Shown piece after piece: positions 1 to 48,795 of a stretch of DNA of 64,000 nucleotides. The notes under the pieces are model-generated. The model worked only from the letters and a program-made list of their open reading frames with translations, was not told the DNA's origin and searched no databases. A program made the translations under genes and the position numbers. Origin of the DNA: Nitrospirota bacterium. GTDB lineage: Bacteria > Nitrospirota > 9FT-COMBO-42-15 > HDB-SIOI813. Numbering within the stretch: the stretch's first letter is position 1; each line of letters begins with the position of its first letter. The stretch lies in NCBI GenBank assembly GCA_020846775.1, contig JADLDG010000023.1, positions 211,948 to 275,947 on the forward strand, written 5' to 3'.

Positions 1-1416
<1,416 letters not shown>

Positions 1417-1569
1417 TCAGCCCCCTTCTCCAGTTGCTGATATACGGTATGTCGTTGCAATGATTGCAGAAGTAACCCTAATTTTACCTTATTTCCAGAG
1501 GTGAGTGCAAACAGTTAAAGCGCACCCCAATGCTCTATAAATGAATATGGCATTAAACCGCTTCTTCAA

Positions 1570-2985
1570 TTAACCATGTTCCCAGTTTGTATGGAAATAA
1601 CGATTCTCATCAACACGCTCGTAAGTGTGTGCGCCGAAATCATCACGCTGGGCTTGTATCAGGTTTGCGGGAAGCCAGGCGCTGCGGTATGAATCGAAAT
1701 AGGCAAGGGACGCCATCAGTCCTGGAACTGGAATACCAAGTCTTGCAGCCTGGCCTACGACAGAGCGCAAATCTTCATCTTTGGAAATAACTACCTTGCT
1801 AAGATATTCATCATTGAGCAGGTTCGGCAGATCAGGGTGAGATTGAAACGCAGCCCGGATATCTTCGAGTAACGCGGCCCGGATAATGCAGCCGCCACGC
1901 CAGATGAGCGCCACATTTTCCAGTTCTATATTGAAGTCATATTTTTGGGAGGCAATGCGAAGCTGAGCCAAACCCTGGGCATATGTGATTATCATTGAGG
2001 CATAGATTGCGCCTTTGAGCCGGGTAAGAAATACAGCCTGATCACCGTCAAATTGCGGAAGGTGCAATACAAGTTTACTGCTGGCTGTCTCTCGTTCAGT
2101 TTTCATGGCTGACATATTTCTAACGGCGACAGCTGCATCTATTACCGGTATAGGAACCCGTATGTCCATAGCATCTTGTGATGCCCACATCCCTGTGCCT
2201 TTTTGTCCGGCTTTATCCAGGATCATATCGAGGAGCTTCTTCCCGGTTCGTTCATCAACCTTACGGAAAATGTTTGACGTTATTTCTATCAGATACGAAT
2301 TGAGTTCGGCATCATTCCATTGACTATAAACAACAGATAACTCATCATCAGACAGTTTAAGGCCGCGTTTCATCAGGTCGTAAGATTCAGCTATCAACTG
2401 CATCAAACCGTATTCGATTCCATTGTGGACCATTTTGACGTAATGACCAGCTGAACCCGGCCCGAGATAGGCAGAACAGGGCACTCCTGCCACGCGTGCT
2501 GCAATTGCCTCAAAGACAGGTCTGACACGCTCGTAGGCTTCTTTAGGACCACCCGGCATAAGGCTTGGACCGTGCCTCGCTCCTTCCTCGCCGCCGGATA
2601 CTCCGACCCCCATATACAATATTCCGATTTCAGCAAGCGACTTCGAACGCAGGTCCGTATCTTTGAAATGTGAGTTGCCTGCATCAATGATGAGATCGCC
2701 TCTTTCTATCTCAGGCATCAAATCATTGATCACGTTGTCAACCACTTTCCCGGCAGGGACCATCATCATAATGATACGCGGTCTGGAAAGTGCGCTGACA
2801 AATTCCTTCAGTCCTTTCGCGGCATGGATTGCACGGCTTCCGGTCTCTGTTTGAAGTTTCAGAACCTTTGACAAATCCTTATCATAACCGCTGACTGAGT
2901 ACCCATGATCCGCTATATTTAGTGTCAGGTTGCGCCCCATTACGCCAAGACCAATCATTCCGATTTCATATGTTTGTTGTCTCAT
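1570..2985 (-). CDS. gnd: NADP-dependent 6-phosphogluconate dehydrogenase
   Basis: GLGVMG Rossmann motif, GVSGGEEGA, KMVHNGIEY, QKGTG, ANLIQAQRD.FGAHTY; RBS GAGGAG. Confidence 0.97.
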   Translation of the reverse strand: MRQQTYEIGMIGLGVMGRNLTLNIADHGYSVSGYDKDLSKVLKLQTETGSRAIHAAKGLKEFVSALSRPRIIMMMVPAGKVVDNVINDLMPEIERGDLIIDAGNSHFKDTDLRSKSLAEIGILYMGVGVSGGEEGARHGPSLMPGGPKEAYERVRPVFEAIAARVAGVPCSAYLGPGSAGHYVKMVHNGIEYGLMQLIAESYDLMKRGLKLSDDELSVVYSQWNDAELNSYLIEITSNIFRKVDERTGKKLLDMILDKAGQKGTGMWASQDAMDIRVPIPVIDAAVAVRNMSAMKTERETASSKLVLHLPQFDGDQAVFLTRLKGAIYASMIITYAQGLAQLRIASQKYDFNIELENVALIWRGGCIIRAALLEDIRAAFQSHPDLPNLLNDEYLSKVVISKDEDLRSVVGQAARLGIPVPGLMASLAYFDSYRSAWLPANLIQAQRDDFGAHTYERVDENRYFHTNWEHG

Positions 2986-3031
2986 ATCTTTTTCTCCTCT
3001 GATTTATTTCGAGTTCTTAGAAGCCTTTCCG

Positions 3032-6000
3032 TCATAGTCCGGACCGTGATTGCCTTATACGCGTTTTCGAATTATTTAAAACGAAATTAAGTAATAAGTA
3101 AAGTGCAGGCATAACCATCAGAACGAGCGGTACAGCCAATAAAAGTCCCGATATGATGGCAATTGCAAGAGGAGCCTGCATCGCAGATCCGGAGCCAATT
3201 TTTAAAGCCAGAGGCATGAGCGCCAGAATAGCTATAATAGATGTCATGAGGATTGGGCGCATTCTCATGATTCCTGCGGTTATAAGCAGACCGGGTTCAT
3301 TTACAGTAATATCATCGAGCTCGGCAAAATAGAAGATGGCGATCTCAGTAACGATGCCAACTATCATTGTGATGCCCATCATCGCAGAGATGTTAAGCTC
3401 GGTGCCTGTAAGCCAGAGACCGAGAAAAGAGCCGCTCAGCGAAAGGAGGGTCGTAAAAAGGATGCTCAGTACCACCACAAACCGTTCATAGAGGAAAAGC
3501 AGGAGAATCCCCACCAGTAGAACAGCACTTACAAAAACCATAAGCAGGTCACGAAAAGACTTCTGTTGCTCCATGTACAGCCCGCCGTACTCGATATAGC
3601 TCCCCACCGGCAGCTTCATCCCGCTCATAGAGGACTTTATGTCCCTCATGGTCGAGCCCAGGTCCCTCCCTTCTATTCGGCCTGTCACGGCGATCATTTG
3701 CTTAAGATTCTCACGGTCTACCTGGACCTGTCCTTCAGCAATACTTATGCTCGCCACCCTCTTTAAGGGCAGGTAGTGACCGCCCGGAGACTTTAGAAGC
3801 AGTTCATCAATTAGCTGTATGCGGTCACGCAGGTTCGAAGGCGGCCAGACCCTCACGCCCACCATCTTTTCTCCGGACTGAACCTGGCTGGCAACATCTC
3901 CACCGAGCTGTTCGCTGATCTGCCCGGTCACGGCATCCGGATCAAGACCTTCGAGGGCTGCCCTGACCCTGTCAATACGTATTTCGATAGCATCTCCGAC
4001 TATTTTTATGCCGTCAAAGACCTCTACAACTCCAGGTATCCTGCCTATACGTTCTGCCACCTGAGGGGCTATTTTCATGAGTACAGAAGGGTCGTCGCTG
4101 AAAATCTTGATCTCTATAGGCTGGGGTACCGCAGTCAGGTCTCCGATGAGGTCTTCCATGAGCTGGAGGGTCTCTATCCTGAGCCCCGGAACTCCGGTCT
4201 CAATTCGTCTTCGGACCTCGGACATGATGGTCTCGATGTCCCTTCGCGGGAATGGCTTAAGATGTATAAAAAAATCTCCTTCGTTAGCCTCAGTCAGACC
4301 TCCTCCCAATTGCAGTCCTGTACGCCTTGAGTAGGTATCTACTTCCGGCGTATTGGTGACAATCTCCTCTACCTGACGCAATAGCCTGTCCGTTTCAGAC
4401 AGAGATGTGCCAGGAGCGGCCTTGTAGTCGAGAATAAAACCACCTTCGTCCATGTGCGGCATGAAGCCCGAACCTACCCGTGAATATGAGATGTAGCCAG
4501 CGGCGCAGAGCAATATGATGATGGGCAGGACCAGGCGGTTCCGTTTTAGAAAGCCGCTCATAAGCAGGCTGTATTTCCTGTGCATGTACCTCAGCATCCT
4601 GCCGGCCGTTTCCATGCGCTCGGCATCTCTACTTTTCAAAAAGATATCACCTAACAAAGGAATAGCCAAAAAGGCCACAAAAAAAGATATGACAAGGCTG
4701 GAGGCCATCGTGACGGCTAACGCCTTGAAAAAGCCGCCCGTAACCCCGCCCAGGAATGCAAGGGGAAGAAAGACAATAACGGTTGCAAGAGATGACCCGG
4801 ATAGCGGTCTCAACATCTCAGTAGCCGCGCTCAGTACCGGTCCGTGCGCTGGCTTTTCTCCTTTTTCCCCTTCACTCATCCGTCGCATGATGTACTCGAC
4901 CATCACCACCCCGTCATCAACTATCAGACCTACTGCCGCTGCCATGCCGCCAAGCGTCATGATATTGAAACTCATATTGAGTGCGTGCAGAAGAAGCACC
5001 GTGGCCGCCAACACGCTCGGAAGGACAACGGCTATGATCAGTGTGATCCTCAGATTACGCAGAAAGAAAAAGAGTATAAGTGCTGCGAGCGCCGCACCTA
5101 TTAAAATGGCATCGCGTACGCTGATGGCGGACGAGACCACCAGCTCGGACTGGTCGTAGTAAGGTTTTATACTTATGTCCGCCGGAATCTGGCCGCTGAA
5201 ATCAGACAAACGGGCTCTTACACTCCTCACTATCGCGACCGTGTTGTCCCCCGGCTGCTGCATAACGTTCATGAGTACGGCGTCCCTGCCATTTGCCGTG
5301 ACGCGGCTCCACTGCGGGATATAGCCAGAGTGCACATCAGCGACATCTCCAAGCTCTACTATGCCATTGGCGCCGCTTTTCAAAATAGTATGTCTGATGT
5401 CGTCAAGGTTTTTAAGGCTTGTATCAGAGAGCACCAGATAAAGACGATAATGGTCTTCTATACGACCTACAGCCGTCACTACGTTGTTTGCTGAGAGCGC
5501 CATAGCAACGTCCTTGAGGGTGAGTCCCGATGCCCTCAGCCGCGCCGGATCTGCCATCACCTGGTATTCTGCCTGATTTCCTCCCAGTATTTCCACCCCG
5601 GCGATCCCGGGTATGGACGAGATCAGCGGCCTTATCTGGAAGTAGGCGAAATCCCGAAGGCTGACGGGCTCCCGGTCGTTCGATGTGAGCGAAAGACCCA
5701 GAACAGGGAAGACAGTCGGGTCCATTCGCCTGGCCGAGAAAGACGTGCCGGCTGGCAGGCTGGAAAGCTCCCGGCTTACGGCTGATTCTACCTGCAGAAG
5801 CGCCGCCGTCATATCGCTTCCCCAGGCTAAGTTCACCGAAAGGTCTGCCGAACCGCGGCTGCTCGTGGAGCGGATCCCCTGCACATCAGGGACGCTCCTC
5901 AGAGCCTGCTCGAGAGGCTGTACTATCTCCACCACCATTCTGTCAACCGGGCGATCCCCTGAGTCTATGCTTACTACGATACGTGGAAACCGGATATCTG

Positions 6001-19191: not shown

Positions 19192-22028
19192 ATGAATAAT
19201 TTATTAAAACTGATCGATTACGGACAGAGCTATTGGTTGGATAATCTAACCCGTAAAAAAATTAAAAGCGGCGAACTGAAAAAAAGAGTAACTCAATTCG
19301 GACTACGAGGTATTACATCAAATCCGGCAATTTTTAACAAAGCAATATCGAAAAGCACCGATTACGATCAACAGATTAAACAGTTAGTAAATAAAAACAA
19401 AACCGTCAAAGAAATATATGAAGCACTAACAACGAAAGATGTTCAGGATGCCTGCGATGTTTTAATGCCGGTTTATGATCTATCAAATGGAATTGATGGA
19501 TTTGTAAGTCTTGAAGTTTCACCTTATTTAGCTCATGATTCGGAAGGTACTATGGCGGAGGCAAGAAAATTATTCAAAGCCGTAAACAGGCCGAATTGTT
19601 TTATTAAAATTCCGGGGACAAATGAAGGAATTCCCGCAATTGAACAGATGCTTTATGAGGGAATTAACATCAATATCACTTTACTCTTTTCAATTGAGAG
19701 TTACGAAGCCGTTACAAATGCCTATATCAGAGCATTGGAGAAAAGGTCAGCAGAAGGCAAACCGGTTGATGAAATTGCCTCCGTGGCAAGCTTCTTTTTA
19801 AGCAGAATAGATGTATTGGTTGATCAGTTATTAGGTCACTTGATTATTCCGGAAAGAACGACCAGTGTTGAAATCAGTCCGGAGCTTTTATTGGGTAAAT
19901 CCGGGATTGCCAGTGCAAAATTAGCTTATCAAAGTTTTAAAAAGATTTTCAATGGTGAGAGATGGAATAATTTAGCAGCCAAGGGCGCACGTGTGCAAAG
20001 ACCTCTTTGGGCAAGCACCAGCACGAAAGATCCGCTTTACAGCGACGTTAAATATGTTGAAACCTTAATTGGCCCCAACACAGTAAACACCTTACCTGAT
20101 CAAACAATCGACGCATTTTATGATCACGGAAAACCTGAAGATAATACGATAGAAAAAGACCTGGATGAATCTTATAAAGTTTTTTCCAATCTCCGAAGTT
20201 TAGGGATCAATATGGATTTTGTTACAACACAATTAGTCAATGAAGGAGTCCAGAAATTTATCGATCCCTATGATGAATTCATGGAAACAATTGCAAAGAG
20301 AAGAAGAGCCTTTTTAGCAGATAAAACAGGGCGACAGGAAATTAATTTTGCCGCTTCTAAATCGGAAGTTGGGGCTGCGCTCAAATCATTGGATGAAAAA
20401 CGGTATTCGCGCAGGCTTTATGCTAAAGATCCCTTTTTATGGAAAACTGACCACAAACAAACCGAAGAAATCCGCAATAGATTGGGCTGGTTGAACGTTG
20501 AAGGTTTTATAAATCGATCGGATGAAATAAACGATTTTGCTAAAAAAGTTAAAGCGGATAAAATTAAATTTATTGTGCTGTTAGGAATGGGTGGAAGCAG
20601 TCTATGTCCTGAAGTATGCAGGGAGACTTTTAAGTCAGCTAATGGTTATCCCGAATTACTTGTTCTTGACAATACTTCTCCGGAAGCAGTGAAAGAAGTC
20701 GAATCAAATATTGATTTAAAGAAAACTTTATTTATCGTTGCCAGTAAATCAGGCACTACAATTGAGACATTGAGCTTTTACAGACATTTTTATTCAAAGT
20801 TAAGTGATACCGGAGTTCAATCTCCAGGCAACCATTTCATCGCAATTACCGATCCCGGAACTTCACTTGAAAAAGAGGCAAAATCGAAAAGCTTCAGACA
20901 TGTATTCAATAACCCGGAAGATTACGGAGGAAGATATTCGGCACTTTCATATTTTGGTTTAGTTCCAATGGCATTGATTGGAATGGATATAAAAAAGATA
21001 TTGGATTATGCCCATCAAATGAAAATAAGTTGCGGTGAATTTATTCCTTCGGAGGCAAGTCCGGCAGTAAGTCTGGGAACTTTGCTGGGAATAAATCAGA
21101 AATCTGGCAGAGACAAAGTTACATTTGTCCTTTCAAAATCTATAAGCGCTTATGGATATTGGGTTGAACAATTGATAGCAGAAAGTACAGGGAAAGAAGA
21201 TAAAGGATTAATCCCGATCGAAAGCGAAGATTTAGGAAAACCAGAACAATATGATAAGGACAGGGTATTTGTTTATCTCCACGCTTCTGGCGATGATACT
21301 CAAACCGATGAAAGAAAATTAGCTTCTCTTGAAAAGAATGCTCATCCTGTTGTTAGAATAGAATTAAAAAATAATTATGCAATTGGTGCGGAATTTTTAC
21401 GCTGGGAAATAGCCACTGCAACAGCGGGAAAAATAATCGGTGTCAATCCTTTTAACGAACCTAATGTTGCAGAAAGCAAAAAGAACAGTAATGACCTTTT
21501 AAACGAATGGAAGGAAAGAGGATCATTCTCCGAGGGTGAACCTCTGGTATCACATAATGGTCTTTCAATTTATGCAGATACAAATCATAGTTGGTTCCCG
21601 AAGTACCATAAAAATCATTAAAAGCATTTATTAAAGCTTTTGTGAAACTTGCAAAAACATCGGACTATTTTTCCTTATTAGCTTATATGTTAAAAACTCC
21701 CTCCAGAGAGAAAAACCTGCAAAGTATCAGAATGAAATTACGCAACAATTTAAAAGTTGCAACGACACTAGGATATGGACCAAGATATTTGCACTCAACC
21801 GGACAATTGCATAAAGGCGGACCAAATAAAGGTGTTTATATTATTTTCACTGCAGATGCAAGATATGATATCCCAATTCCTGACGAAGATTACGGATTTG
21901 CTACTTTACAAAGGGCACAAGTGCTTGGTGATTTTAGATCGCTTAACAATAAAGAAAGAAGAGTGGTCCGGGTTCATCTGGGAAGTGATATTGAAAGAGG
22001 CTTAAAACAATTCTTAGAATTATTATAA
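19192..22028 (+). pseudogene. tal-pgi: Bifunctional transaldolase / glucose-6-phosphate isomerase, split by a 1-nt frameshift at about 21610-21614
   Basis: TAL motifs WLDN, TSNPAIF, FIKIP, RPLWAST; PGI motifs LGMGGSS, SKSGTT, GGRYS, AESTGK, EPNVAESK in 19192-21621; C-terminal GPRYLHSTGQLHKGG in the -1 frame ending 22028; one extra A in the A5 run restores one ORF. Confidence 0.88.
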
Positions 22029-39854: not shown

Positions 39855-40259
39855 TCAAAGTTGAAAGAAGTAAATGAGCCAGCCTGTTGCTGCAACATAT
39901 AACCATACAGCTGCCGTATAAGGAGCAGTCTTTTTGTGTCTGTCAAATCGTCCCCTGAACCCCGAATACAATGTCATGACGGCCAACGGAAGATTAACAA
40001 CTGACAGAAATGTGTGAGACCACAGGGTAGTCAGATAAAGACCCCTTAAACTTCCCTCATATTTTGTATGAGGAAAGATTGTGGTCCTTATCATATATAA
40101 TCCAACAAAGATAATTGCAAAAAAAGATGCAGAAAGCATTGCCCATTTATGTTTTTCTCTCAGGTTCAGCTTTATAAGAAATAATCCTGATACGACACAG
40201 AGCCCGCTTATACCGATTGTTAAAAGACTGCTATATAGTAATGTCGTGTATAGATTCAA
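39855..40259 (-). CDS. DUF420/CtaM-family membrane protein (oxidase assembly factor candidate)
   Basis: 4 TMs, HKWAM, LWSHTFLS, HKK.A.YTAAVWLYVAATG. Confidence 0.82.
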   Translation of the reverse strand: MNLYTTLLYSSLLTIGISGLCVVSGLFLIKLNLREKHKWAMLSASFFAIIFVGLYMIRTTIFPHTKYEGSLRGLYLTTLWSHTFLSVVNLPLAVMTLYSGFRGRFDRHKKTAPYTAAVWLYVAATGWLIYFFQL

Positions 40260-40274
40260 ACCTTACTACCTCAA

Positions 40275-40394
40275 CTATAGTCTCCAGGACAGTACAAGCG
40301 CATCAACAAGTAATAATGCGATTAAACCAAGTACCAGGTATATGACAAAGTACATTTTCTTATTTTTACCCTCAGCTTCATTCTGATAATCCAT
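40275..40394 (-). CDS. Unannotated 39-aa single-TM protein
   Basis: MDYQNEAEGKNKKMYFVIYLVLGLIALLLVDALVLSWRL; RBS GGAGGGAG; overlaps the end of the COX1-like gene; not in ORF track. Confidence 0.7.
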   Translation of the reverse strand: MDYQNEAEGKNKKMYFVIYLVLGLIALLLVDALVLSWRL

Positions 40395-41682
40395 ATTTTC
40401 TCCCTCCCTTGACTATCGTAACAGATATATAAGACACGAAAATAATCCCTCCTATTACCGCCAGTATTGTTCCCACACCCATAATAGTTAGTGACGCAAG
40501 AACAACCGGGTCAGATGTAAAGGCAATGCCATAGGTCTTTCGAGGTGCGCCAAAAGCACCCGAGATAAAGAGCCCAAGGATAAACAGAAACATCCCTCCC
40601 CCATAAATAGCAGGCTGATACCTGGCAAGATGCTCTCCATAAACCCTTTGCCTCATGTCTCTTATAATATAATACGAAAGTCCCATAAGGGCCAATGTCA
40701 GACTTGTCACCGCTCCATGATAGTGGGCAGGAACCCGGAGGTCATTGGCAAAACCACCATATGCGATTGCAATACCAAAGGTATAAATTATCATGGAAAG
40801 CAATAAGGCAACATAGGCCACGCCGAATTCACTCCTCTTAAGATTTCTTATGATATTTGCAATGTGCAGAAAGACCGGAATACCTAATCCCACTGCATAA
40901 GTAATCTCTGCTGCCACTTTAGATGCTTTATTTAACGGATCATAGATAAATTGAAGACCAAAGATAAAGAGCGCCGATAATAAAAGCAATACATTTGCAT
41001 ACCTGAGCAACCGCCATGTACTGAATTCTCCATTATGTTTTCGCAATAAGCTATACCAGGCTATAATTAGCATAGAGCCGTTTAATATCTGCTGAATGTG
41101 ACCCGTGGTCCAGAAAAGTCTCTCAAAAAAGACAAGCGGCTCTGCAGGTCCCCTGTTAAGCAGTATTGAGCAGACCATGGATAATATCATCAAGAGACTG
41201 ATTAACAAAGACATCACTACTGTATTCATAAGGATGTCCTTTGAGAATAAATACCTAATGCTTTTCTTTAAGTACCCTATCGCATTTATTGAGAACCCTG
41301 TAATAAACAAGGCCAGACCAATGAAAAATAGAGGATCAATTATGGTAGGCACGTAGTTGTTTGTGACTACCTTTCCATTACCTGTCACAACAGAAATTGT
41401 CACAAGCAATGGTCCCATGAGTGCGATTTTATGTGATAAACCTCTAAAGCGGATATTATCGCCATTACCCAGGTAAATATCCCACAACACAACTGTAAAT
41501 GACAGAAGCCAGAGTAGTATGGCCAGCACAACATGTCCTGCCAGTGCGTGATACATATAATAAGGCGGAAAGTACTTGTATCCAAACGGAGTCCTGCTCA
41601 TAGCGACCAGAAAGGCAAATCCCCCGCCTATGCCTAAAGATAATATTGCAAGATAGAACCAACCGTATGCAGACTTATTCAT
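40378..41682 (-). CDS. Heme-copper oxidase subunit I-like protein lacking CuB ligands
   Basis: 12-TM-like; MSR (TM1 Arg), AGH (TM2 His), NNYVP, LFWTTGH (TM6 His, no Tyr), VPAHYHG (TM10 HxH), GAPRK; no TM7 HH. Confidence 0.8.
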   Translation of the reverse strand: MNKSAYGWFYLAILSLGIGGGFAFLVAMSRTPFGYKYFPPYYMYHALAGHVVLAILLWLLSFTVVLWDIYLGNGDNIRFRGLSHKIALMGPLLVTISVVTGNGKVVTNNYVPTIIDPLFFIGLALFITGFSINAIGYLKKSIRYLFSKDILMNTVVMSLLISLLMILSMVCSILLNRGPAEPLVFFERLFWTTGHIQQILNGSMLIIAWYSLLRKHNGEFSTWRLLRYANVLLLLSALFIFGLQFIYDPLNKASKVAAEITYAVGLGIPVFLHIANIIRNLKRSEFGVAYVALLLSMIIYTFGIAIAYGGFANDLRVPAHYHGAVTSLTLALMGLSYYIIRDMRQRVYGEHLARYQPAIYGGGMFLFILGLFISGAFGAPRKTYGIAFTSDPVVLASLTIMGVGTILAVIGGIIFVSYISVTIVKGGRKYGLSE

Positions 41683-41782
41683 GGAATAACACCATCGCCA
41701 CTCCTTCAACTTCTCTCAGCCCCAATTCATCATTTCTGATTTTCCCTAACTCATTGCTCATTGCTTCTTCTATTGTTTGCAT
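41675..41782 (-). CDS. 35-aa ORF overlapping start of COX1-like gene (peptide or frameshifted N-terminus)
   Basis: RBS GGAGA + ATG 41782: MQTIEEAMSNELGKIRNDELGLREVEGVAMVLFHE; stop overlaps ATG 41682. Confidence 0.35.
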   Translation of the reverse strand: MQTIEEAMSNELGKIRNDELGLREVEGVAMVLFHE

Positions 41783-41796
41783 GCTTATCTCCTGCA

Positions 41797-42684
41797 TCAT
41801 GCCATATCCAGGATCATTGCAGTAAAAATAACCAATATGTATAGAATAGAAAAGAAAAAAAGAAACATGTCACAATCACGTTTAGACATCATAAATTTAA
41901 CGGCAATTCCAAGATAGTAGATCCCTGCAACTATTGCAATTATAAGATAGATCCAACCTGTCATGCCTGAGATATATGGAGTAATACTCACAACCAGAAG
42001 CAGTGCAGTGTATATGAAAATCCGTATTTTTGTTGACCGGACTCCCTTGGCAACTGGAATTACAGGTATGCGGGCAGACTCATACTGGTCCCTGTACTTG
42101 AGCGCTATACTCAAGGCATGAGGATGCTGCCAAATCGCTGAGATGGCAAACAATATGACAGCAGTCAGATCAATCCTTTGTGTCACCGCTACATAACCTA
42201 TGACTGGCGGGAGTGCACCTGCGATTCCTCCAATCTGGTTTGCATAGGATGAGCGTCGTTTCAGGATTATCGTATAAAGGACAACATAACCAAATACAGC
42301 AGCTCCGGTCAGTGTCGCAGTCATCAAGTTAACATTTGCTGATAAAAACAGTACAGAGAAGACCACCAACAGAATTCCTGTAATTACTGTCTTCCCTGGT
42401 GAAAATGCCTCAACTGCCAATGCCCTGCTCCGGGTCCTCTCCATGATGGCATCAATGTCCCTGTCAACATAATTATTCAGAATTGCTGACCCTGCTGTTG
42501 CCAAAGCAATACCTGTCATGACAGAAATGGTAATCCATATATCCGGCAGTCCCCTGCTGGCAATACACAGACCCGTCAGTGTAGACATCATGACGAGGGA
42601 TACGATGCCTGGTTTGGCAAGGACTAAGTAGTCTCCTATTGCATGGCTTGCTGGAATTGCACTTTCTATCACATATTCTTTCAT
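41797..42684 (-). CDS. ctaB: Protoheme IX farnesyltransferase (heme O synthase)
   Basis: LAKP, NNYVDRDIDAIMERTRSR, GGIAGALPPVIG, WQHPH, Y..DY-type motif; RBS GGGAGG before ATG 42684. Confidence 0.95.
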   Translation of the reverse strand: MKEYVIESAIPASHAIGDYLVLAKPGIVSLVMMSTLTGLCIASRGLPDIWITISVMTGIALATAGSAILNNYVDRDIDAIMERTRSRALAVEAFSPGKTVITGILLVVFSVLFLSANVNLMTATLTGAAVFGYVVLYTIILKRRSSYANQIGGIAGALPPVIGYVAVTQRIDLTAVILFAISAIWQHPHALSIALKYRDQYESARIPVIPVAKGVRSTKIRIFIYTALLLVVSITPYISGMTGWIYLIIAIVAGIYYLGIAVKFMMSKRDCDMFLFFFSILYILVIFTAMILDMA

Positions 42685-42714
42685 ATCTGCCTCCCCGGAC
42701 ACAGCGCGCGTAAC

Positions 42715-42747
42715 CCCATTCCCCCCACTCCCCCCTTGATTAGGGGG
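42715..42747. repeat. G/C-rich REP-like hairpin between ctaA and ctaB
   Basis: CCCCCT-TGATT-AGGGGG (42731-42747) preceded by further C-runs. Confidence 0.5.
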
Positions 42748-42762
42748 CAATTTATCCTGCTG

Positions 42763-43680
42763 CTACCTGCTGCCGGCAACCTGCATATTCCACAGGATGT
42801 CTCTCTTTGAAAACAAAAATGGCGCCGACTGATACGCCAGCCAGCCAAGCAACAGGAATCCTGTGGCGCCATGCAAAATGATAACAGGCAGAAACAAACC
42901 TGTTAAGATTAATGATATACCCAGGACAACCTGCATGATAACCAGACTCATTGTTATTGCTGCAACCCTGATCCCACTGCCCATCTTAATTGCCTTATAC
43001 AACATAAATATAGTAAACAACAGTACAGCACCCGCCGTAACCCTGTGTATAAAGTGCAGGGCTACAGCACCGTTACCAAGGAATGGTATTATCTGTCCCT
43101 GACACAGGGGAAAATCCGGGCAGGCCAGTGAGGCCTTGGAATAACGGACTAATATACCCAGAATTACCTGAAGATATACAAGGCAGAAGAGGAAAAAGGC
43201 ATAGCCCTTTTCTGCGACATTATTGTTGCCGCTTATTTTTCTCAGTGTAAAGATCAGAGATGTCAACACCATCGTTGCAATAATAAGATGTGATGATACG
43301 AGAGCAACCCTGAAGATATTATCAAGATAAGGCGCCTCTGTCAGCACAGTTACGCCGCCAATCAGAACACCGAGAAACAAAAGCCCCAGGATTAATGCAG
43401 TAAGGATGCGGGCTGCCCCCTTATACCTTATCCAGACATACGCTGTAGACATGATCAGCAGCGACCCTGTTAAAGCACCGAGAAGCCTGTGCCCCCACTC
43501 AAACCATATGTGCATCCTGAACGGCGGCCTGACACTGCCATAGCAAAGCGGCCAGTCAGGACAGGCAAGGCCCGAGCCTGTCGAGGTCACGAATGCACCC
43601 ATTATCATAAGAAGATAGAGAAACAAAATAGTTATCCCTATTGGATACGTTGGATTTATTGCTTCTATAATCTTTTTCAT
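42763..43680 (-). CDS. ctaA: Heme A synthase (CtaA/COX15)
   Basis: GSGLACPDWPLC, EWGHRL, H in TM4, ACPDFPLC, HFIHR, LHG. Confidence 0.95.
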   Translation of the reverse strand: MKKIIEAINPTYPIGITILFLYLLMIMGAFVTSTGSGLACPDWPLCYGSVRPPFRMHIWFEWGHRLLGALTGSLLIMSTAYVWIRYKGAARILTALILGLLFLGVLIGGVTVLTEAPYLDNIFRVALVSSHLIIATMVLTSLIFTLRKISGNNNVAEKGYAFFLFCLVYLQVILGILVRYSKASLACPDFPLCQGQIIPFLGNGAVALHFIHRVTAGAVLLFTIFMLYKAIKMGSGIRVAAITMSLVIMQVVLGISLILTGLFLPVIILHGATGFLLLGWLAYQSAPFLFSKRDILWNMQVAGSR

Positions 43681-43725: not shown

Positions 43726-45339
43726 TCATGAATTTCCATATCCATACGGATGCCAGTCTTCAGACAATTCCGGAATTGGGTGGAAATTTCCCGGCGGCGG
43801 AGGAGTCGTAGTCATCCACTCAATTGACCTCGACGACCATGGATTATCATCCGCCTTTTTCCCTGCAGCAAGTCCATGAATCCATGCTATGAGATTAATC
43901 AGAGCGCCCAGACCAATAATGAATGCTCCTATGGTAACTATAAAGTGAAGTCCCTCAAGCTGGGGGAACTGCTGATAATCAAAGTATCTCCTCGGCATGC
44001 CCTTAATTCCGACTATCATCATGGTAAAGAAGGTAACGTTCACCCCAATGAAGGAAATAATAAACCCTGATTTCCCAAGGGTCTCGTTGTACATCTTTCC
44101 GGTCATCTTTGGAAAGAGGTAATATATGCTTCCAAATATAGCAAAGGTAGTTGATACCGCCATTACATAATGAAAGTGCCCTACAATAAAATGCGTATCA
44201 TGAATGGCAAGGTCTATAGCTGTCATTGCATTCGGGATACCGGTCAATCCTCCAATAAGGAACAGAAATATGAATCCGACTGCATATAGCATCGGCGTAG
44301 TATATTGGATAGCGGCCTTATAAAGCGTACCTATAAGACCAATCATTAAGAGACCTACAGGAATGCTGATCATCAGTGTACTTACCATCATCCCAAGCCT
44401 GATCCAGTCGGGCATACCGGAAGTAAAAAGGTGATGTATCCAAACCTCGCCGCTAAGAAGGACGACACCCCCAATACCGCCATAAACCACCATCTTGTAG
44501 TTAAAGACACGATTCTTTGAAAAAGTAGCGACTATTTCATAGATTATCCCCATGGTAGGCAACAGGATTACATACACTGCCGGATGCGAGTAGAACCAGA
44601 ACAGGTTTTGATATAAGAGTACGTCGCCCCCTGCGGATGGATCAAAGAAATGTGTCCCTATATATTTGTCAAAAAGGAGCATCGTAACTGCTGCGGCTAA
44701 AACAGGTATGAAAATCAACTGTAATATAAATGCGCCGAGTGTGCTCCAGACAAAAATATTCAACTTACCCCATGTCAAGCCTGGGGCACGCATATAGATG
44801 ACCGTGGTAATCAGGTTTATTCCTCCTACAATGGATGAAAAACCCATGAGGTGTACGGTAAATACGTAGAAGGCCGTGTTGCCTCCGCTTCTGAGAGAAT
44901 ACGGAGGGTATCCGGTCCACATAATATCCGGTGAGTCAGGAATTACAAAGGTTAGAAGCGCAACAACGATGCCTGCCCAGAATAACCAGAGACTCAGGGC
45001 ATTGAGCCTCGGAAAGGCCATATCCTTTGCCCCTATCATAAGTGGAATAAGATAGTTCGCAAGAAACCCTGTGAGCGCCGGTATCTGAAATGCAAGTATC
45101 ATGGCTGCACCATGAAAATATAACCAGGTATTATATGTCTGTGGGTTTGTAATCGTCGGACCTATAGATCCCAGTTCTATCCTGATAAGTATTGCCATTA
45201 GACCGGCAACAGCAAATGCTGCCAGCGAACCGATTAAATAGAGGATACCAATCCTCTTGTGGTCTATTGTAAAAATCCATTCTTTAAGTGTCTGTCCGTA
45301 ACCAACCTTGTGTGCCATTGAGTGCGATGCTGTACTCAT
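43726..45339 (-). CDS. coxA: Cytochrome c oxidase subunit I, A2-type (YS motif)
   Basis: DHKRIG, FHG, KDMAFPRLN, FWFYSHPAVY, WIHH, HDT, VGHFHY, GMPRRY. Confidence 0.97.
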   Translation of the reverse strand: MSTASHSMAHKVGYGQTLKEWIFTIDHKRIGILYLIGSLAAFAVAGLMAILIRIELGSIGPTITNPQTYNTWLYFHGAAMILAFQIPALTGFLANYLIPLMIGAKDMAFPRLNALSLWLFWAGIVVALLTFVIPDSPDIMWTGYPPYSLRSGGNTAFYVFTVHLMGFSSIVGGINLITTVIYMRAPGLTWGKLNIFVWSTLGAFILQLIFIPVLAAAVTMLLFDKYIGTHFFDPSAGGDVLLYQNLFWFYSHPAVYVILLPTMGIIYEIVATFSKNRVFNYKMVVYGGIGGVVLLSGEVWIHHLFTSGMPDWIRLGMMVSTLMISIPVGLLMIGLIGTLYKAAIQYTTPMLYAVGFIFLFLIGGLTGIPNAMTAIDLAIHDTHFIVGHFHYVMAVSTTFAIFGSIYYLFPKMTGKMYNETLGKSGFIISFIGVNVTFFTMMIVGIKGMPRRYFDYQQFPQLEGLHFIVTIGAFIIGLGALINLIAWIHGLAAGKKADDNPWSSRSIEWMTTTPPPPGNFHPIPELSEDWHPYGYGNS

Positions 45340-45342
45340 GAT

Positions 45343-46089
45343 TTATGCACCCCCTTTCGCTTCTTCTTCAGCTAAAGCTCTTTTCTCATCTTCGATCCAT
45401 TTGTTAAACTCATCCTTAGGCAACGCAATTATTGTCCCCCTCATACTTGAGTGAAGGACACCGCAAAATTCTGCACATGTGATAAGATGTTCACCAGGTT
45501 CTTTCGGGTAGAACCAGAGATAGGTCACCCTGCCAGGCATGAGGTCTTCCTTGACCTTAAAGTCAGGAAGGAAGAAGCTGTGAATGACATCCCGGCTTGT
45601 CATTCGAACAAGAACAGGGGTACCCGCCGGAACCCTTAATTCATTAACCGTCTCCACGCCTTCAGGATATTTGAAGTTCCAGCTCCACATTTGTCCTTCA
45701 AGTTTAACTTCATAGGCATTCTCCGGCACTGTCCTGTAATCATTGAAAAGAGTCCAACCTTCAGCAGCCAGATAAAGATCATCTGCCATAAAGATAAAGG
45801 CGGGAATTAACGCCCATCCAATGGCTGCTGCGATGCTGAGCCTGGGCGGTCTACCCTCCTGCCCTGCATACCTTCTCCTGTATCTGATCAAAAAGTAGAT
45901 CGTAATTCCGGCAAAGATGACTCCGATCACCGTTATGTCAATAAGCATCTCATTGAACAAATGCTGCCACCCTCCGGGAAGATCGGGAATTTTTCCAAAT
46001 CCTCTCACTTCATGCTCCGCATACGATGTAGAAGCTGCCGCAAGCATAAGGAACGAGAGACATATTACATTTATTATTTTCCTGATCAT
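45343..46089 (-). CDS. coxB: Cytochrome c oxidase subunit II (CuA, no fused cytochrome c)
   Basis: GQMWSW, DVIHSF, CAEFCGVLHSSM. Confidence 0.96.
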   Translation of the reverse strand: MIRKIINVICLSFLMLAAASTSYAEHEVRGFGKIPDLPGGWQHLFNEMLIDITVIGVIFAGITIYFLIRYRRRYAGQEGRPPRLSIAAAIGWALIPAFIFMADDLYLAAEGWTLFNDYRTVPENAYEVKLEGQMWSWNFKYPEGVETVNELRVPAGTPVLVRMTSRDVIHSFFLPDFKVKEDLMPGRVTYLWFYPKEPGEHLITCAEFCGVLHSSMRGTIIALPKDEFNKWIEDEKRALAEEEAKGGA

Positions 46090-46922
46090 GGCCTTGCCTC
46101 CTTTCTCTTTCTAAAATAGATGATTGGTGTAAAAATAAAGATCGCACCCAATATAAATGCCCCGACTCCAACAAACAGGGGATAATTCAACGTATATTTT
46201 CCCTCCTTGTAGTTATAGCTGTAGCAAGCCATTGTCAGGAGGTCTATAACTTTTGAATGCCTGTTCCTGTTATACGCCGCTTCTGTAACTGCAAGTTCAA
46301 CATCCTTGCTATCAAGAGGTGACCCGTAGATATAGCGTGCTATCCTGAGATCCGGAGACAAAAATATATAAGCGTACGTATGCAGAAAAGTCCTGTCACG
46401 AGGCGACCAGAAGAATTTATAACCTGCACTCTTTGTCAAAGCTGCGATGTCTTCCTTGTTCTTCATAACAGCTATTTTCCAATAATCACCCTTACTGCCT
46501 CTTATTCCTGTCATTTCAGTAAACACATTCAGTTGACGCAAATCATCTTTTTTATCAAATGAAACTGTCAGTACGTTATAATCTTTTCCCGGAATCAGCC
46601 CGGTTATCCCTGAGAGTGCATCCCTCAAGTGTACGTTGATTGATGGACATGCCCCGTCACATGAAAAATAGGAAAATACAAGGATAAGCGGTTTACCCGA
46701 CATATCTTTGAGTTTGAACTCCTCACCGTCCTTATCCAGCAGAATCAATTCTCCATCCAATCTGGCTCCGAGGTATGCGTCCTCGTCAATCCTCATGATT
46801 GAGGGATCCAAAGTTGACTCAGAGATTGTTCCGCTTTTTGCATATACTGAACGAGCCCCAATCGCAATTAATATAGACAGGATCATGAAAAAGATTAACT
46901 TGTAGTTTTCAGCTCTTAACAT
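46086..46922 (-). CDS. SCO/SenC-family copper chaperone
   Basis: CDGAC (CxxxC), conserved His (FLHT), C-terminal TM; ATGA overlap with coxB. Confidence 0.88.
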   Translation of the reverse strand: MLRAENYKLIFFMILSILIAIGARSVYAKSGTISESTLDPSIMRIDEDAYLGARLDGELILLDKDGEEFKLKDMSGKPLILVFSYFSCDGACPSINVHLRDALSGITGLIPGKDYNVLTVSFDKKDDLRQLNVFTEMTGIRGSKGDYWKIAVMKNKEDIAALTKSAGYKFFWSPRDRTFLHTYAYIFLSPDLRIARYIYGSPLDSKDVELAVTEAAYNRNRHSKVIDLLTMACYSYNYKEGKYTLNYPLFVGVGAFILGAIFIFTPIIYFRKRKEARP

Positions 46923-46936
46923 TAGTACCTCCAGAC

Positions 46937-47767
46937 CTACGACCAGAGATAGACCTGAGTCAAAACAAAAAACCAGATAATATCAACAAAGTGCCAGTAC
47001 ATGGATGCAGACTTAACAAAGGACTTGCTCATCTTCCCCATGAGCGCAGGTATTAGTATGCAAATAAACATTCCTACACCAACCAGTACATGAGAGAAAT
47101 GAAAGCCTGTAATTGTGTAATAGGCAGTGCTGTAGATGTTTGTCTTGAAGTTGAATCCTTCTGTCATCAGATGAGAATACTCATTTATCGTAATCAGCAT
47201 GAAGACTGTTCCAAGTACTATAGTGGCGATCAGCCATGTTAGAAATCCACTTCTGTCTCCCTTTTCCATTCTTACTTCACTGTGATGGATAGTAAAACTT
47301 GATGACACAAGGACAGCTGTCATAATCAGCGGCGTCGTCACAGATATATCCGGTGTGCCTTCAGGCGGCCAGCCTGCAGACTTAAGCCTTACGACCCAAT
47401 AGCCCGCAAAAAAAGCAATAAAGATGAATGCCTCAGCCAATATAAAGAAAGGCATTGCTGTAACAACATACCCAGGCTCATCTTTTTGTCCCACACCTTC
47501 ACTGATCCAGCCTGCTATTGCTATGACTGTAAGCGGCACTCCAATACCAAGCGATAACATTGCCGTTAATGGCCTTGCATAAACGTAATAGAGTGCAAAT
47601 GAAAAGGGTATCAGGAATAAAATCCCGATGACCAGGACAAGGGGCCAAGGGCTTGTCTCCCAGTGGTGACCATGCGCCGGGTCATCCCCATCGGATTGAG
47701 CGTACGATCTACTTTGTACAGCACCTGCCCCCCACGTCACATCCTGACTAATTGTTTGCTTAGACAT
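46937..47767 (-). CDS. coxC: Cytochrome c oxidase subunit III
   Basis: SPWP, LAEAFIF..FF, WPP, SSS, TGFHFSHV, YWHFVDIIW; RBS GGGAGG before ATG 47767. Confidence 0.95.
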   Translation of the reverse strand: MSKQTISQDVTWGAGAVQSRSYAQSDGDDPAHGHHWETSPWPLVLVIGILFLIPFSFALYYVYARPLTAMLSLGIGVPLTVIAIAGWISEGVGQKDEPGYVVTAMPFFILAEAFIFIAFFAGYWVVRLKSAGWPPEGTPDISVTTPLIMTAVLVSSSFTIHHSEVRMEKGDRSGFLTWLIATIVLGTVFMLITINEYSHLMTEGFNFKTNIYSTAYYTITGFHFSHVLVGVGMFICILIPALMGKMSKSFVKSASMYWHFVDIIWFFVLTQVYLWS

Positions 47768-47859
47768 TTTTTTCACCTCCCTTTTAAACTATTAAACTAC
47801 CCTTACCGGACCTATCGGACCTTATATATCCTGTTTCAGTATAAAAAAATGCTGACAGT

Positions 47860-48297
47860 TTATTTCATTAACGATTCTTTCTTAGCTATTGCATCTTTCA
47901 CGAGCTGCTCAAATGAACAACCACCCAGGTAATCAATCAATACCTTCTGGGCGCCAGCCCAAACATCATGCACTGAACAGAACTTATCCCTGTCGCAGTA
48001 ACCCTCATATATAAGACAGTAATTCAGGAATATAGGGCCCTCCATTGCCTCAATCACATCCAGCAGCTTAATATCTTTTGGCTGTCTGGTTAATGCAAAT
48101 CCGCCTTTCTGACCCTTAAACGACTTTACAAATCCTTTTCTAACAAGTAATTGCAGGAGTTTGGCAAGATATGCAGGAGGTGTATCAGTTGATTTGGCAA
48201 TCTCATCTATATCACATAACTTGTCTTCAGAATAGTGGATAGATAAGTGCAGCAACCCTCTTATTGAATATTCAGCAGCCTTGCTTAATCTAAACAT
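47860..48297 (-). CDS. Rrf2-family (IscR-like) Fe-S transcriptional regulator
   Basis: YLAKLLQ.L...G, GQKGGF, C-X6-C-X5-C-X2-H (CLIYEGYCDRDKFCSVH). Confidence 0.93.
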   Translation of the reverse strand: MFRLSKAAEYSIRGLLHLSIHYSEDKLCDIDEIAKSTDTPPAYLAKLLQLLVRKGFVKSFKGQKGGFALTRQPKDIKLLDVIEAMEGPIFLNYCLIYEGYCDRDKFCSVHDVWAGAQKVLIDYLGGCSFEQLVKDAIAKKESLMK

Positions 48298-48308
48298 CAA
48301 CCACCTCT

Positions 48309-48465: not shown

Positions 48466-48795
48466 ATGAAAACACATTTAATTATAGTTATAATCTTAGC
48501 GGCGTTTATTTGTAGTGTTTCGGCTTTTGCTGCAGATGGTTCTAAAGTCTATAAAGAAAAATGCTCATTATGTCATGGCCCTGCAGGAGGTGGTACCCCA
48601 ATGGGACCGTCTTTTAAGGGAAATGAATTCATAACGAAGGGCAAAGCAGCTGATATTAAGATCGTCATTTTGGAAGGACGGTCAGGATCAAATAAGAAAT
48701 ACGCAAAGATCTCTATGGACATGCCTAAGATTTCCATGTCAGACGAAGATGTTCAGGCGCTCATCTCTTACATGCAGGTAGACCTGCAGAAATAA
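48466..48795 (+). CDS. Class I monoheme c-type cytochrome
   Basis: Signal peptide ending AFA, CSLCH, distal Met (MDMP). Confidence 0.93.
   Translation: MKTHLIIVIILAAFICSVSAFAADGSKVYKEKCSLCHGPAGGGTPMGPSFKGNEFITKGKAADIKIVILEGRSGSNKKYAKISMDMPKISMSDEDVQALISYMQVDLQK

Follow-up and report, generated by a model that had tools for sequence, protein, structure and literature searches.

How does a cytochrome c oxidase of family A supply protons to its active site when the side chains of its K channel are missing from two subunits at once? The question is raised by a locus in a 64,000-nucleotide stretch of a Nitrospirota bacterium genome (contig JADLDG010000023.1, positions 211,948 to 275,947; hereafter, the window), which carries the genes coxA and coxB for subunits I and II of a probable aa3-type oxidase. 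In model enzymes, one or two of the chemical protons needed while the binuclear centre is being reduced arrive through the K pathway, and turnover is nearly abolished in the K362M mutant of Rhodobacter sphaeroides. What the pathway does is debated: in one view it conducts protons, and in the other it serves the reduced binuclear centre as an electrostatic "dielectric well". To our knowledge, the evidence on this pathway comes entirely from site-directed mutants that cripple the enzyme. We found that its polar residues have been replaced in both subunits, here and throughout a large natural clade.

The two genes and the sites concerned are as follows.

43726-45339, minus strand: coxA, subunit I (537 amino acids), A2-type haem-copper oxidase; Pfam COX1, E 2.7e-137

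44347-44358, minus strand: Val328-Gly-Leu-Leu331 in helix VIII (coxA residues 328-331, translated as VGLL)

44536-44541, minus strand: Tyr267-Glu268 in helix VI, with Tyr267 at the position of R. sphaeroides Ser299

45343-46089, minus strand: coxB, subunit II (248 amino acids), with the CuA site and without a cytochrome c domain; Pfam COX2

45823-45825, minus strand: Ala89 of coxB, at the K-channel entry position (R. sphaeroides Glu101, Paracoccus denitrificans Glu78)

The IAVPTGxK site of coxA reads ISIPVGLL, so that Thr359 is replaced by Val328 and Lys362 by Leu331 (R. sphaeroides numbering). In phmmer alignments to solved structures, ISIPVGLLMI stands opposite IAVPTGVKLF of the Thermus caa3 oxidase (2yev_A). 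Two further serines of the K pathway are gone, namely Ser299 (now Tyr267) and Ser365 (now Gly334). In coxB, residues 87-96 (45802-45831, minus strand) read AAAIGWALIP, opposite RLEVVWTLIP of Thermus caa3 subunit II; the R. sphaeroides chain 6ci0_B, which we take to be an E101A(II) mutant entry, has PLAIAWTIVP at this site, and Ala89 falls on position 101. Thus, the classical polar residues of the pathway (Ser299, Thr359, Lys362, and Ser365, as well as Glu101 of subunit II) are all hydrophobic or Gly, and with Leu331, Val328, Tyr267, and Ala89 the enzyme does not have the K channel of family A.

The enzyme retains its active site and its D channel. The haem and CuB ligands (His76, His252, His302, His303, His388, and His390) and the cross-link Tyr256 (HPAVY, helix VI) are present, and all seven are invariant in an alignment of 200 coxA relatives with 53-93% identity (hereafter, the clade). 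The D-channel residues Asp106, Asn95, Asn113, Ser169, and Asn175, which correspond to Asp132, Asn121, Asn139, Ser201, and Asn207 of R. sphaeroides, are conserved in 199-200 of the 200 sequences, as is the Arg-Arg pair (Arg450 and Arg451 in coxA). Helix VI carries the A2 pair Tyr250-Ser251 (FWFYSHPAVY) in place of Glu286, and Tyr250, Ser251, and Ala254 are invariant in the clade. The CuA motif of coxB, H...CAEFCGVLHSSM, is intact from residue 170. The original prediction had described an A2-type enzyme with hydrophobic residues in place of Thr359 and Lys362 in transmembrane segment 8 of coxA, without the entry Glu101 in segment 2 of coxB, and with the D-channel Asp and Asn, the YS motif, the HPAVY Tyr, the HH pair, and the CuA site intact. 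The translations and the alignments to Thermus caa3, which was the top match in PDB, and to 6ci0_B agree with this description at every point.

The His ligands together with the Tyr, the D channel, and the partnership with a CuA-bearing subunit II and a subunit III place the enzyme in family A, and the Tyr-Ser pair places it in the A2 subtype of the classification of Pereira et al. We considered two other classes. The nitric oxide reductases (NOR) of the haem-copper oxidase type (cNOR, qNOR, eNOR, sNOR, gNOR, and nNOR) are marked by the loss of the cross-link Tyr and by changed active-site ligands (PMC11214002); as the Tyr and the three CuB His residues are invariant in the clade, and as coxA is similar to A2 enzymes, we did not file it among them. 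A B-family (ba3-type) enzyme was rejected because the D channel is present, helix VIII is hydrophobic, and position 267 is Phe, Tyr, or Met; the E-value of coxA is only about 1e-15 against ba3 and 1e-125 against caa3. Judging from the conserved residues, the protein is likely to be a working aa3-type cytochrome c oxidase. The fuller description, namely, that the operon encodes an aa3-type, A2-subfamily enzyme of the published 'A2 subtype CyoCAB' clade that would act as an O2 reductase with a non-canonical proton supply, is reasonably probable.

The loss is not peculiar to the window. Lys is absent in all 200 relatives, in which position 328 is Val (190), Ile (6), or Phe (4) and position 331 is mainly Leu (98), Met (65), Thr (15), or Ile (9). 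All 120 of the closest coxA protein clusters (65-93% identity) have neither Lys nor Thr; the Lys position is occupied by Leu (62), Met (32), Thr (13), Cys (6), Ile (2), or Val (2), and the Thr position by Val or Ile. Position 267, which is Ser in 59 of 62 canonical sequences, is Phe (93), Tyr (86), or Met (16) in the clade, and position 268 is Glu or Asp in 100%. At the Glu101 position, the 118 coxB clusters that could be scored by pattern have Ala (72), Met (16), Val (14), Ser (7), Ile (4), Lys (3), Arg (1), or Gln (1), and none has Glu; the two clusters missed by the pattern are also without Glu.

A scan of genomes, with one genome per species, gave 80 loci. Lys and Thr were missing at all 80; at the 72 where scoring was possible for both genes, Lys and Glu were lost together without exception. 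The hosts include Nitrospirae, Thermodesulfobacteriota/Deltaproteobacteria, Rhodocyclaceae (Sulfuritalea), Burkholderiales (Ideonella and Rubrivivax), Thiomargarita, Acidiferrobacterales, Magnetococcales, Nitrospinota, Rhodospirillales, Thalassospiraceae, Terasakiella, Methylocystaceae, Sideroxydans, and Zetaproteobacteria. The nearest locus belongs to a metagenome-assembled genome of Nitrospirae (coxA 86% identical). The coxA proteins of the Sulfuritalea loci are 66-68% identical to that of the window, and the loci of Sulfuritalea, Thiomargarita, Mariprofundaceae, Terasakiella, and Thalassospiraceae together span 54-70%. Because the His residues, the Tyr, the D channel, the Tyr-Ser pair, and the Arg-Arg pair are kept in 199-200 of 200 sequences, the pattern points to purifying selection on a functioning active site and to neither error nor gene decay. 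The loss had been predicted to be concerted between subunits I and II and to be due to selection, not error; the 72 paired loci confirm the former, and the invariance of the loss in at least 200 sequences from many phyla, with catalytic and D-channel residues kept, supports the latter.

We then examined the timing of the loss with an outgroup library of 50%-identity cluster representatives and a neighbour-joining tree, which is distance-based only. The next relative outside the clade is an Aquificaceae protein that is only 49% identical and carries IAVPTGIKIF. Its locus has the gene order COX3-SCO-COX2-COX1, as in the window. Lys, Thr, and the Ser corresponding to Ser299 are all retained in its coxA, where helix VII is of the canonical kind, and the entry Glu is present in its coxB (GLEALLTLIP). 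On the tree, the Lys-less clade is monophyletic with the Lys-bearing Aquificaceae as its sister. As this sister with the same gene order retains Lys, Ser299, helix VII, and Glu, the loss of the K channel is, by this comparison, derived and concerted, and falls on the stem of the clade together with a rebuilding of helix VII and the appearance of a serine, Ser325, in helix VIII. The changes placed on the stem are Ser299 to Phe/Tyr, Ala356 to Ser, Thr359 to Val, Lys362 to Leu/Met, and Glu101 of subunit II to Ala, as well as Gly to Asn280, Gly at 287, 288, 291, and 297, and a one-residue insertion at 294. In the Aquificaceae contig (L081, 3692-10903), a second, B-type-like oxidase set directly follows the sister operon, with a short COX2 (149 amino acids), a COX1 (589 amino acids), and another SCO gene.

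Loss of the Lys was also found elsewhere in family A. In a sample of the 111 usable 50%-identity representatives nearest to the query, 49 are without the Lys, with a mostly hydrophobic replacement in 32 of them and Gln or His in the other 17; on the neighbour-joining tree, at least 13 changes in the Lys state are needed by parsimony. The general statement in the original prediction that A-family oxidases use both the D and the K channel is thus too strong. Among representatives P0241-P0390 there is one large Lys-less group of about 840 amino acids, likely a fusion of subunits I and III, with Gln or His at the Lys position.

The remaining sites in coxA that distinguish the clade lie in and near helices VII and VIII.

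44446-44502, minus strand: remodelled loop and helix VII, Asn280 to Glu298 (from the clade alignment)

44365-44367, minus strand: Ser325, equivalent to R. sphaeroides Ala356 and a single helical turn above the position of the lost Thr (from the clade alignment)

The helix VII region of the clade differs from that of canonical enzymes in that Asn280 replaces Gly, Gly287 Ala, Gly288 Met, Gly291 Ile, Ser296 Gly, Gly297 Phe, and Glu298 a hydrophobic residue, and in that there is an insertion at 294; the residue at 294 is missing in all 62 canonical representatives. Conservation within the clade is about 99-100% at Asn280, Ser325, and Glu/Asp268, the first two of which are clade-specific. Position 325 is Ser in 199 of 200 clade sequences and Ala in 58 of the 62 Lys-bearing representatives. 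Ser or Thr occurs there in 22 of the 32 Lys-less representatives with mostly hydrophobic replacements, compared with 1 of 62 Lys-bearing ones (Fisher 8e-13, kinship ignored), and the tree suggests about six or seven gains of Ser/Thr325 in Lys-less backgrounds and one in a Lys background.

Since it is located one helical turn above the lost Thr, Ser325 should lie next to the catalytic Tyr and the farnesyl hydroxyl of haem a3. By helical periodicity, the spacings of Asn280, Gly287/288, Gly291, and Glu298 from the CuB ligand His302 (about -22, -15/-14, -11, and -4) would put them roughly on the same face as this ligand, an estimate that ignores a possible register shift from the insertion at 294. 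Thr331 sequences show a weak covariation, in that 13 of 15 have Val instead of Glu at 298, which may simply reflect shared ancestry. Glu298 was rejected as a universal internal proton donor because it is acidic in only 74% of the clade; it could be an optional element at most. A compensating chain about one helical turn away had been named with the original prediction as an observation that would count against it, and the outcome is divided: there is a conserved Ser325 one turn above the lost Thr, and there is no replacement Lys or Ser/Thr chain from which a normal K pathway could be built. The insertion and the Gly cluster in helix VII, the Ala356-to-Ser change, the scale and strict pairing of the losses, and the comparison with the sister operon are new here beyond published tables. 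As a separate observation, coxA position 380, which in R. sphaeroides holds the Mg/Mn-site residue His411, is variable in the clade (S111/H31/Q18/G16), the window enzyme keeps His380-Asp381 (44197-44202), and the adjacent Asp is often Gly (20 of 32) in the other Lys-less lineages.

How, then, may the protons enter? The reductive-phase protons handled by the Lys require the K pathway in model enzymes, and so the members of the clade must do without it. We propose that the Lys-less enzyme would still reduce O2 to water, and that pumped and oxidative-phase protons would still pass through the D channel. The one or two reductive-phase protons that are the usual load of Lys362 would get to Tyr256 and the binuclear centre with no lysine on the way, possibly by a water-based route through the remodelled region of helices VI, VII, and VIII. 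Such a route could start at an entrance near Glu268 and Asn280, run along helix VII on the side lined by Gly (and by Glu298, in sequences that have it), and end through Ser325 at Tyr256. The specificity of Asn280 and Ser325 to the clade, the Gly substitutions, the recurrent Ser/Thr325, and the Thr331/Val298 pairing are consistent with this lysine-free route, which we advance tentatively, as a serious possibility that falls a little short of probable.

Several points weigh against it. The candidate polar residues below Ser325 are few and not universal (Glu/Asp at 298 in 74% of the sequences, Ser at 296 in 65%, and Ser at 334 in 49%). The GGxxG pattern of helix VII can equally mean tighter packing that closes a cavity. 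K362M is nearly inactive in R. sphaeroides; since the change nearly kills turnover there, we infer the activity of the clade from conservation. The association statistics ignore phylogeny, the tree is neighbour-joining only, and we found in the literature no biochemical characterisation of a Lys-less enzyme of the CyoCAB type.

In the chief alternative, which was the first option of the original prediction (the other being a new proton route), all eight protons per O2, chemical and pumped, might instead enter through the D channel, ending at the Tyr-Ser pair, with the K region sealed. The invariance of the D-channel residues and of Tyr250-Ser251 agrees with this, as do the hydrophobic or Gly residues at every K-pathway position and the GGxxG pattern, if it reflects tighter packing; Degli Esposti et al. 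also concluded that the D channel is kept in Lys-less A2 enzymes. However, an invariant and clade-specific Ser325 and Asn280 would be left unexplained, and so would the recurrence of Ser325 with the loss of Lys in independent lineages. In model enzymes, moreover, the D channel cannot rescue K362M. We thus regard exclusive use of the D channel as rather unlikely. That family A has a third route of proton input, a Lys-free water wire with a rebuilt helix VII and a Ser cap at Ala356 that arose convergently elsewhere, or else that the whole cycle runs through the D channel, is a broader claim, which seems to us possible rather than probable. If true, by either route the clade would be a natural and widespread counter-example to the two-channel rule of A-type oxidases.

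Two further explanations were considered. In the first, the reductive-phase protons would come from the periplasmic (P) side, as in cNOR, to give a less electrogenic oxidase for organisms of micro-oxic or gradient habitats. The variable position 380 is a faint hint of a changed water or exit region on the P side, and the hosts are mostly microaerophiles, denitrifiers, and iron oxidisers. The window enzyme, however, retains His380-Asp381, and no polar chain was identified on the P side; this purely speculative supply is improbable. In the second, the main role would be other than energy-conserving O2 respiration, such as slow O2 scavenging, protection, or the turnover of NO, and a crippled reductive phase would be tolerated. 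The occurrence of the clade in Thermodesulfobacteriota, Nitrospirae, denitrifying Rhodocyclaceae, and Candidatus Nitricoxidireducens could fit such a role, and the regulator gene upstream of the operon encodes a member of the Rrf2 family, which includes NO and Fe-S sensors. Nevertheless, the invariant cross-link Tyr and three CuB His residues are the signature of an O2 reductase, the known NOR families are without the Tyr, the D channel needed for pumping is invariant, and the Rrf2 protein fits no specific subfamily model, NsrR included; we would be surprised if this role were the main one. Sequencing or assembly error, or a decaying pseudogene, hardly deserves any credence and is refuted by the intact open reading frames and by the same substitutions in more than 200 independent sequences whose other sites are strongly conserved.

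A large, conserved natural clade that keeps its active site and D channel, and in which the K side chains have been erased in two subunits, offers a ready experimental system, and cultured hosts are available. The clade also matters for annotation. Many of its subunit I proteins are named "cbb3-type cytochrome c oxidase subunit I" by NCBI. The window coxA obtains 582 bits with the CtaD/CoxA model NCBIfam TIGR02891, whose curated cutoff is 670.75, and this shortfall is presumably the reason for the names. For an A-family clade, this naming is a systematic mis-annotation, and name-based surveys of aerobic capacity will mis-file these oxidases.

The other genes of the locus are as follows.

47860-48300, minus strand: Rrf2-family regulator; Pfam Rrf2, and in NCBIfam a match to the superfamily model only

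46937-47776, minus strand: coxC, which opens the operon and encodes subunit III; Pfam COX3, E 1.2e-24

46086-46922, minus strand: SCO1/SenC-like copper chaperone with a CDGAC motif, between coxC and coxB; Pfam SCO1-SenC

42763-43680, minus strand: ctaA, haem A synthase; Pfam COX15-CtaA, E 1.9e-35

41797-42750, minus strand: ctaB, haem O synthase; NCBIfam TIGR01473, 275 bits against a cutoff of 210

40378-41709, minus strand: divergent COX1-like protein; Pfam COX1, E 1.5e-15

39855-40259, minus strand: DUF420 membrane protein, the last gene of the operon; Pfam DUF420, E 4.8e-32

48466-48795, plus strand: mono-haem cytochrome c, divergent to the operon; Pfam Cytochrom_C, E 3.4e-12

The order on the minus strand is Rrf2, coxC, SCO, coxB, coxA, ctaA, ctaB, COX1-like, and DUF420. 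The order coxC-SCO-coxB-coxA, with SCO between coxC and coxB, recurs in about 70 of the 80 related genome loci. An Rrf2 gene upstream of coxC is also found in loci L001-L005, L011, and L024 (Nitrospirae and Deltaproteobacteria/Thermodesulfobacteriota) and not in the proteobacterial ones; the Rrf2 protein of the window reaches the cutoff of no NCBIfam subfamily (IscR, RirA, NsrR, or CymR). The coxB protein obtains 167 bits against NCBIfam CoxB and exceeds the cutoff of 147.7, and the AlphaFold2 (AF2) model of coxA has a predicted local distance difference test (pLDDT) score of 81 and a predicted template modelling (pTM) score of 0.87. The mono-haem cytochrome c is a candidate electron donor, a role that we infer. 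The remainder of the window is ordinary bacterial chromosome, with pentose-phosphate genes, RND efflux, a two-component system, DnaE, AccA, fumarase, and CstA, and a scan with Rfam across the window gave no RNA family matches. At 19192-21621 (plus strand), a single open reading frame of 809 amino acids joins transaldolase and phosphoglucose isomerase domains, next to the pentose-phosphate genes for 6PGD, transketolase, and G6PD.

The COX1-like protein downstream of ctaB (open reading frame of 443, probably 434, amino acids) has 12 helices, and of all the items in the window it is the least described. It gave no PDB match by sequence or profile search; its AF2 model (pLDDT 91) is closest in fold to subunit I of Thermus ba3 (TM-score 0.78), and hhalign aligned helices X-XII alone with coxA. 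His59, His204, His329, and His331 are invariant and His282 is nearly so, and the His pair of helix X aligns with the haem ligands of coxA. The protein has neither the HH pair nor the cross-link Tyr, so that a site of the haem-copper oxidase kind would have two of the three CuB His residues. We considered gNOR, in which Asp replaces a His, and nNOR, with His/Met haem ligation, and the protein does not fit the published descriptions of either. The family comprises about 160 proteins from Nitrospirae, Thermodesulfobacteriota, Nitrospinota, and Aquificaceae, and about 25 of the 80 loci have the gene close to the CyoCAB-type operon; the protein may be part of the CyoCAB enzyme or separate from it. 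DUF420, which has been proposed as a distant relative, and possibly the root, of the haem A synthase CtaA (Degli Esposti et al. 2021, PMC8239418), recurs next to the COX1-like gene in related loci, e.g., L005, L011, L050, L053, L058, L069, and L073. In L053 and L058 (Methylocystaceae and Terasakiella; about 500-4550), the genes ctaA, DUF420, COX1-like, a short coxB-like gene, and ctaB precede coxC-SCO-coxB-coxA, and owing to this short coxB-like gene the COX1-like protein may have its own cupredoxin partner in some lineages.

The known systems with which the enzyme can be compared begin with its own clade. The 'A2 type CyoCAB operon' was defined as SCO-rich and akin to the Aquifex A2 oxidase, in Magnetovibrio, Magnetospira, and Terasakiella (PMC6431628, Degli Esposti et al. 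2019). Its taxa were listed as Aquificae, Zetaproteobacteria, Alpha-, Beta-, Gamma-, and Deltaproteobacteria, and Nitrospirae (PMC8239418 Suppl. Table S1; Degli Esposti, Moya-Beltrán, Quatrini, Hederstedt 2021). In the latter study, the K-channel entry for CyoCAB reads 'most KC, hybrid or modified', the COX1/COX2 substitutions are tabulated for, e.g., Sulfuritalea, Magnetospira, and Mariprofundus, and Lys-less enzymes stay in family A as 'modified/KC' variants; Hydrogenobacter and Ca. Magnetobacterium casensis retain K, T, and E. In its Fig. S7 table, Sulfuritalea hydrogenivorans is classed as 'modified' (Y Y M V G E N V G A) and Thiotrichaceae UWMA-0225 as 'KC-channel' (Y F M V G E N V G S); the COX2 residue is Ala in both.

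The window enzyme has Y256, Y267, L331, V328, G334, E268, N280, V284, G287, and S296, with Ala89 in COX2. These ten K/KC positions and the non-Glu residue at COX2 E78 match the Sulfuritalea and Thiotrichaceae rows, and the sole difference is Leu for Met at the Lys position, as other CyoCAB rows have. The order COX3-(SCO)-COX2-COX1, the range of taxa, and the Aquificae sister are also alike, and the enzyme clusters with named members on the distance-based tree. By these comparisons, the window enzyme is a further, Nitrospirae-related member of CyoCAB with no essential difference. The novelty implied by the original prediction therefore fails, as the subclade and its K-channel pattern had already been published (PMC6431628 and PMC8239418); an earlier description of the subclade was among the outcomes named with the prediction as refuting it. 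Both the operon type and the pattern of residues being known from the literature, the window contributes one more member, together with some correlated features.

The A2-type oxidases of acidophilic iron oxidisers show a concerted substitution of K354 and E78 with retention of the D channel (2020 preprint, 10.1101/2020.03.01.968255). The rus-operon oxidases (COX) of Acidithiobacillus, Acidiferrobacter, and Acidihalobacter resemble the window enzyme in that K354 and E78 are replaced by non-ionisable residues and the D channel is kept. Unlike it, they keep Thr351, have HPEVY instead of HPAVY, belong to another operon, and have two extra N-terminal helices (PMC8239418), and on account of Thr351, HPEVY, and the extra helices we rejected identity with this Lys-less clade. 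The Lys-less representatives outside our clade fall elsewhere in the tree, and none could be named as Acidithiobacillus; the rus-operon oxidases are a separate lineage there only if P0289-like representatives stand for them, which is unconfirmed. The Lys-less aa3 oxidase of Acidithiobacillus ferrooxidans is reported to have been purified as an active enzyme. The oxidase of Ferrigenium straubiae has no K channel in subunits I and II, the consequence of which was called unclear (2026 preprint, 10.64898/2026.01.22.701106). It differs in its stated gene order, coxBA11C, and may or may not be of the same clade; a Sideroxydans locus (L059) does belong to the clade.

The best solved relative is Thermus thermophilus caa3 (PDB 2yev, E 1.4e-125), which shares YSHPxVY, the D channel, the ligands, and CuA. 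In contrast to the window enzyme, it keeps the Thr, the Lys, and the Glu of subunit II, and it has a fused subunit I+III and a cytochrome c domain on subunit II, neither of which is present here. Of the KC positions of cbb3 (S240, S244, H247, and Y255 in V. cholerae CcoN), which correspond to Asn280, Val284, Gly287, and Ser296, two of the four are polar. A B-family-like channel through a Tyr at +11 from the cross-link Tyr, presumably the position of ba3 Tyr248, was rejected: the window has Tyr267 there, and in the clade this position, being F93/Y86/M16, is not conserved, in addition to which the helix VIII Ser and Thr of ba3 are absent. The KC channel of cbb3 and the K-analogue of ba3 are nonetheless precedents for lysine-free proton input, by way of Ser, Thr, Tyr, and waters among helices VI-VIII.

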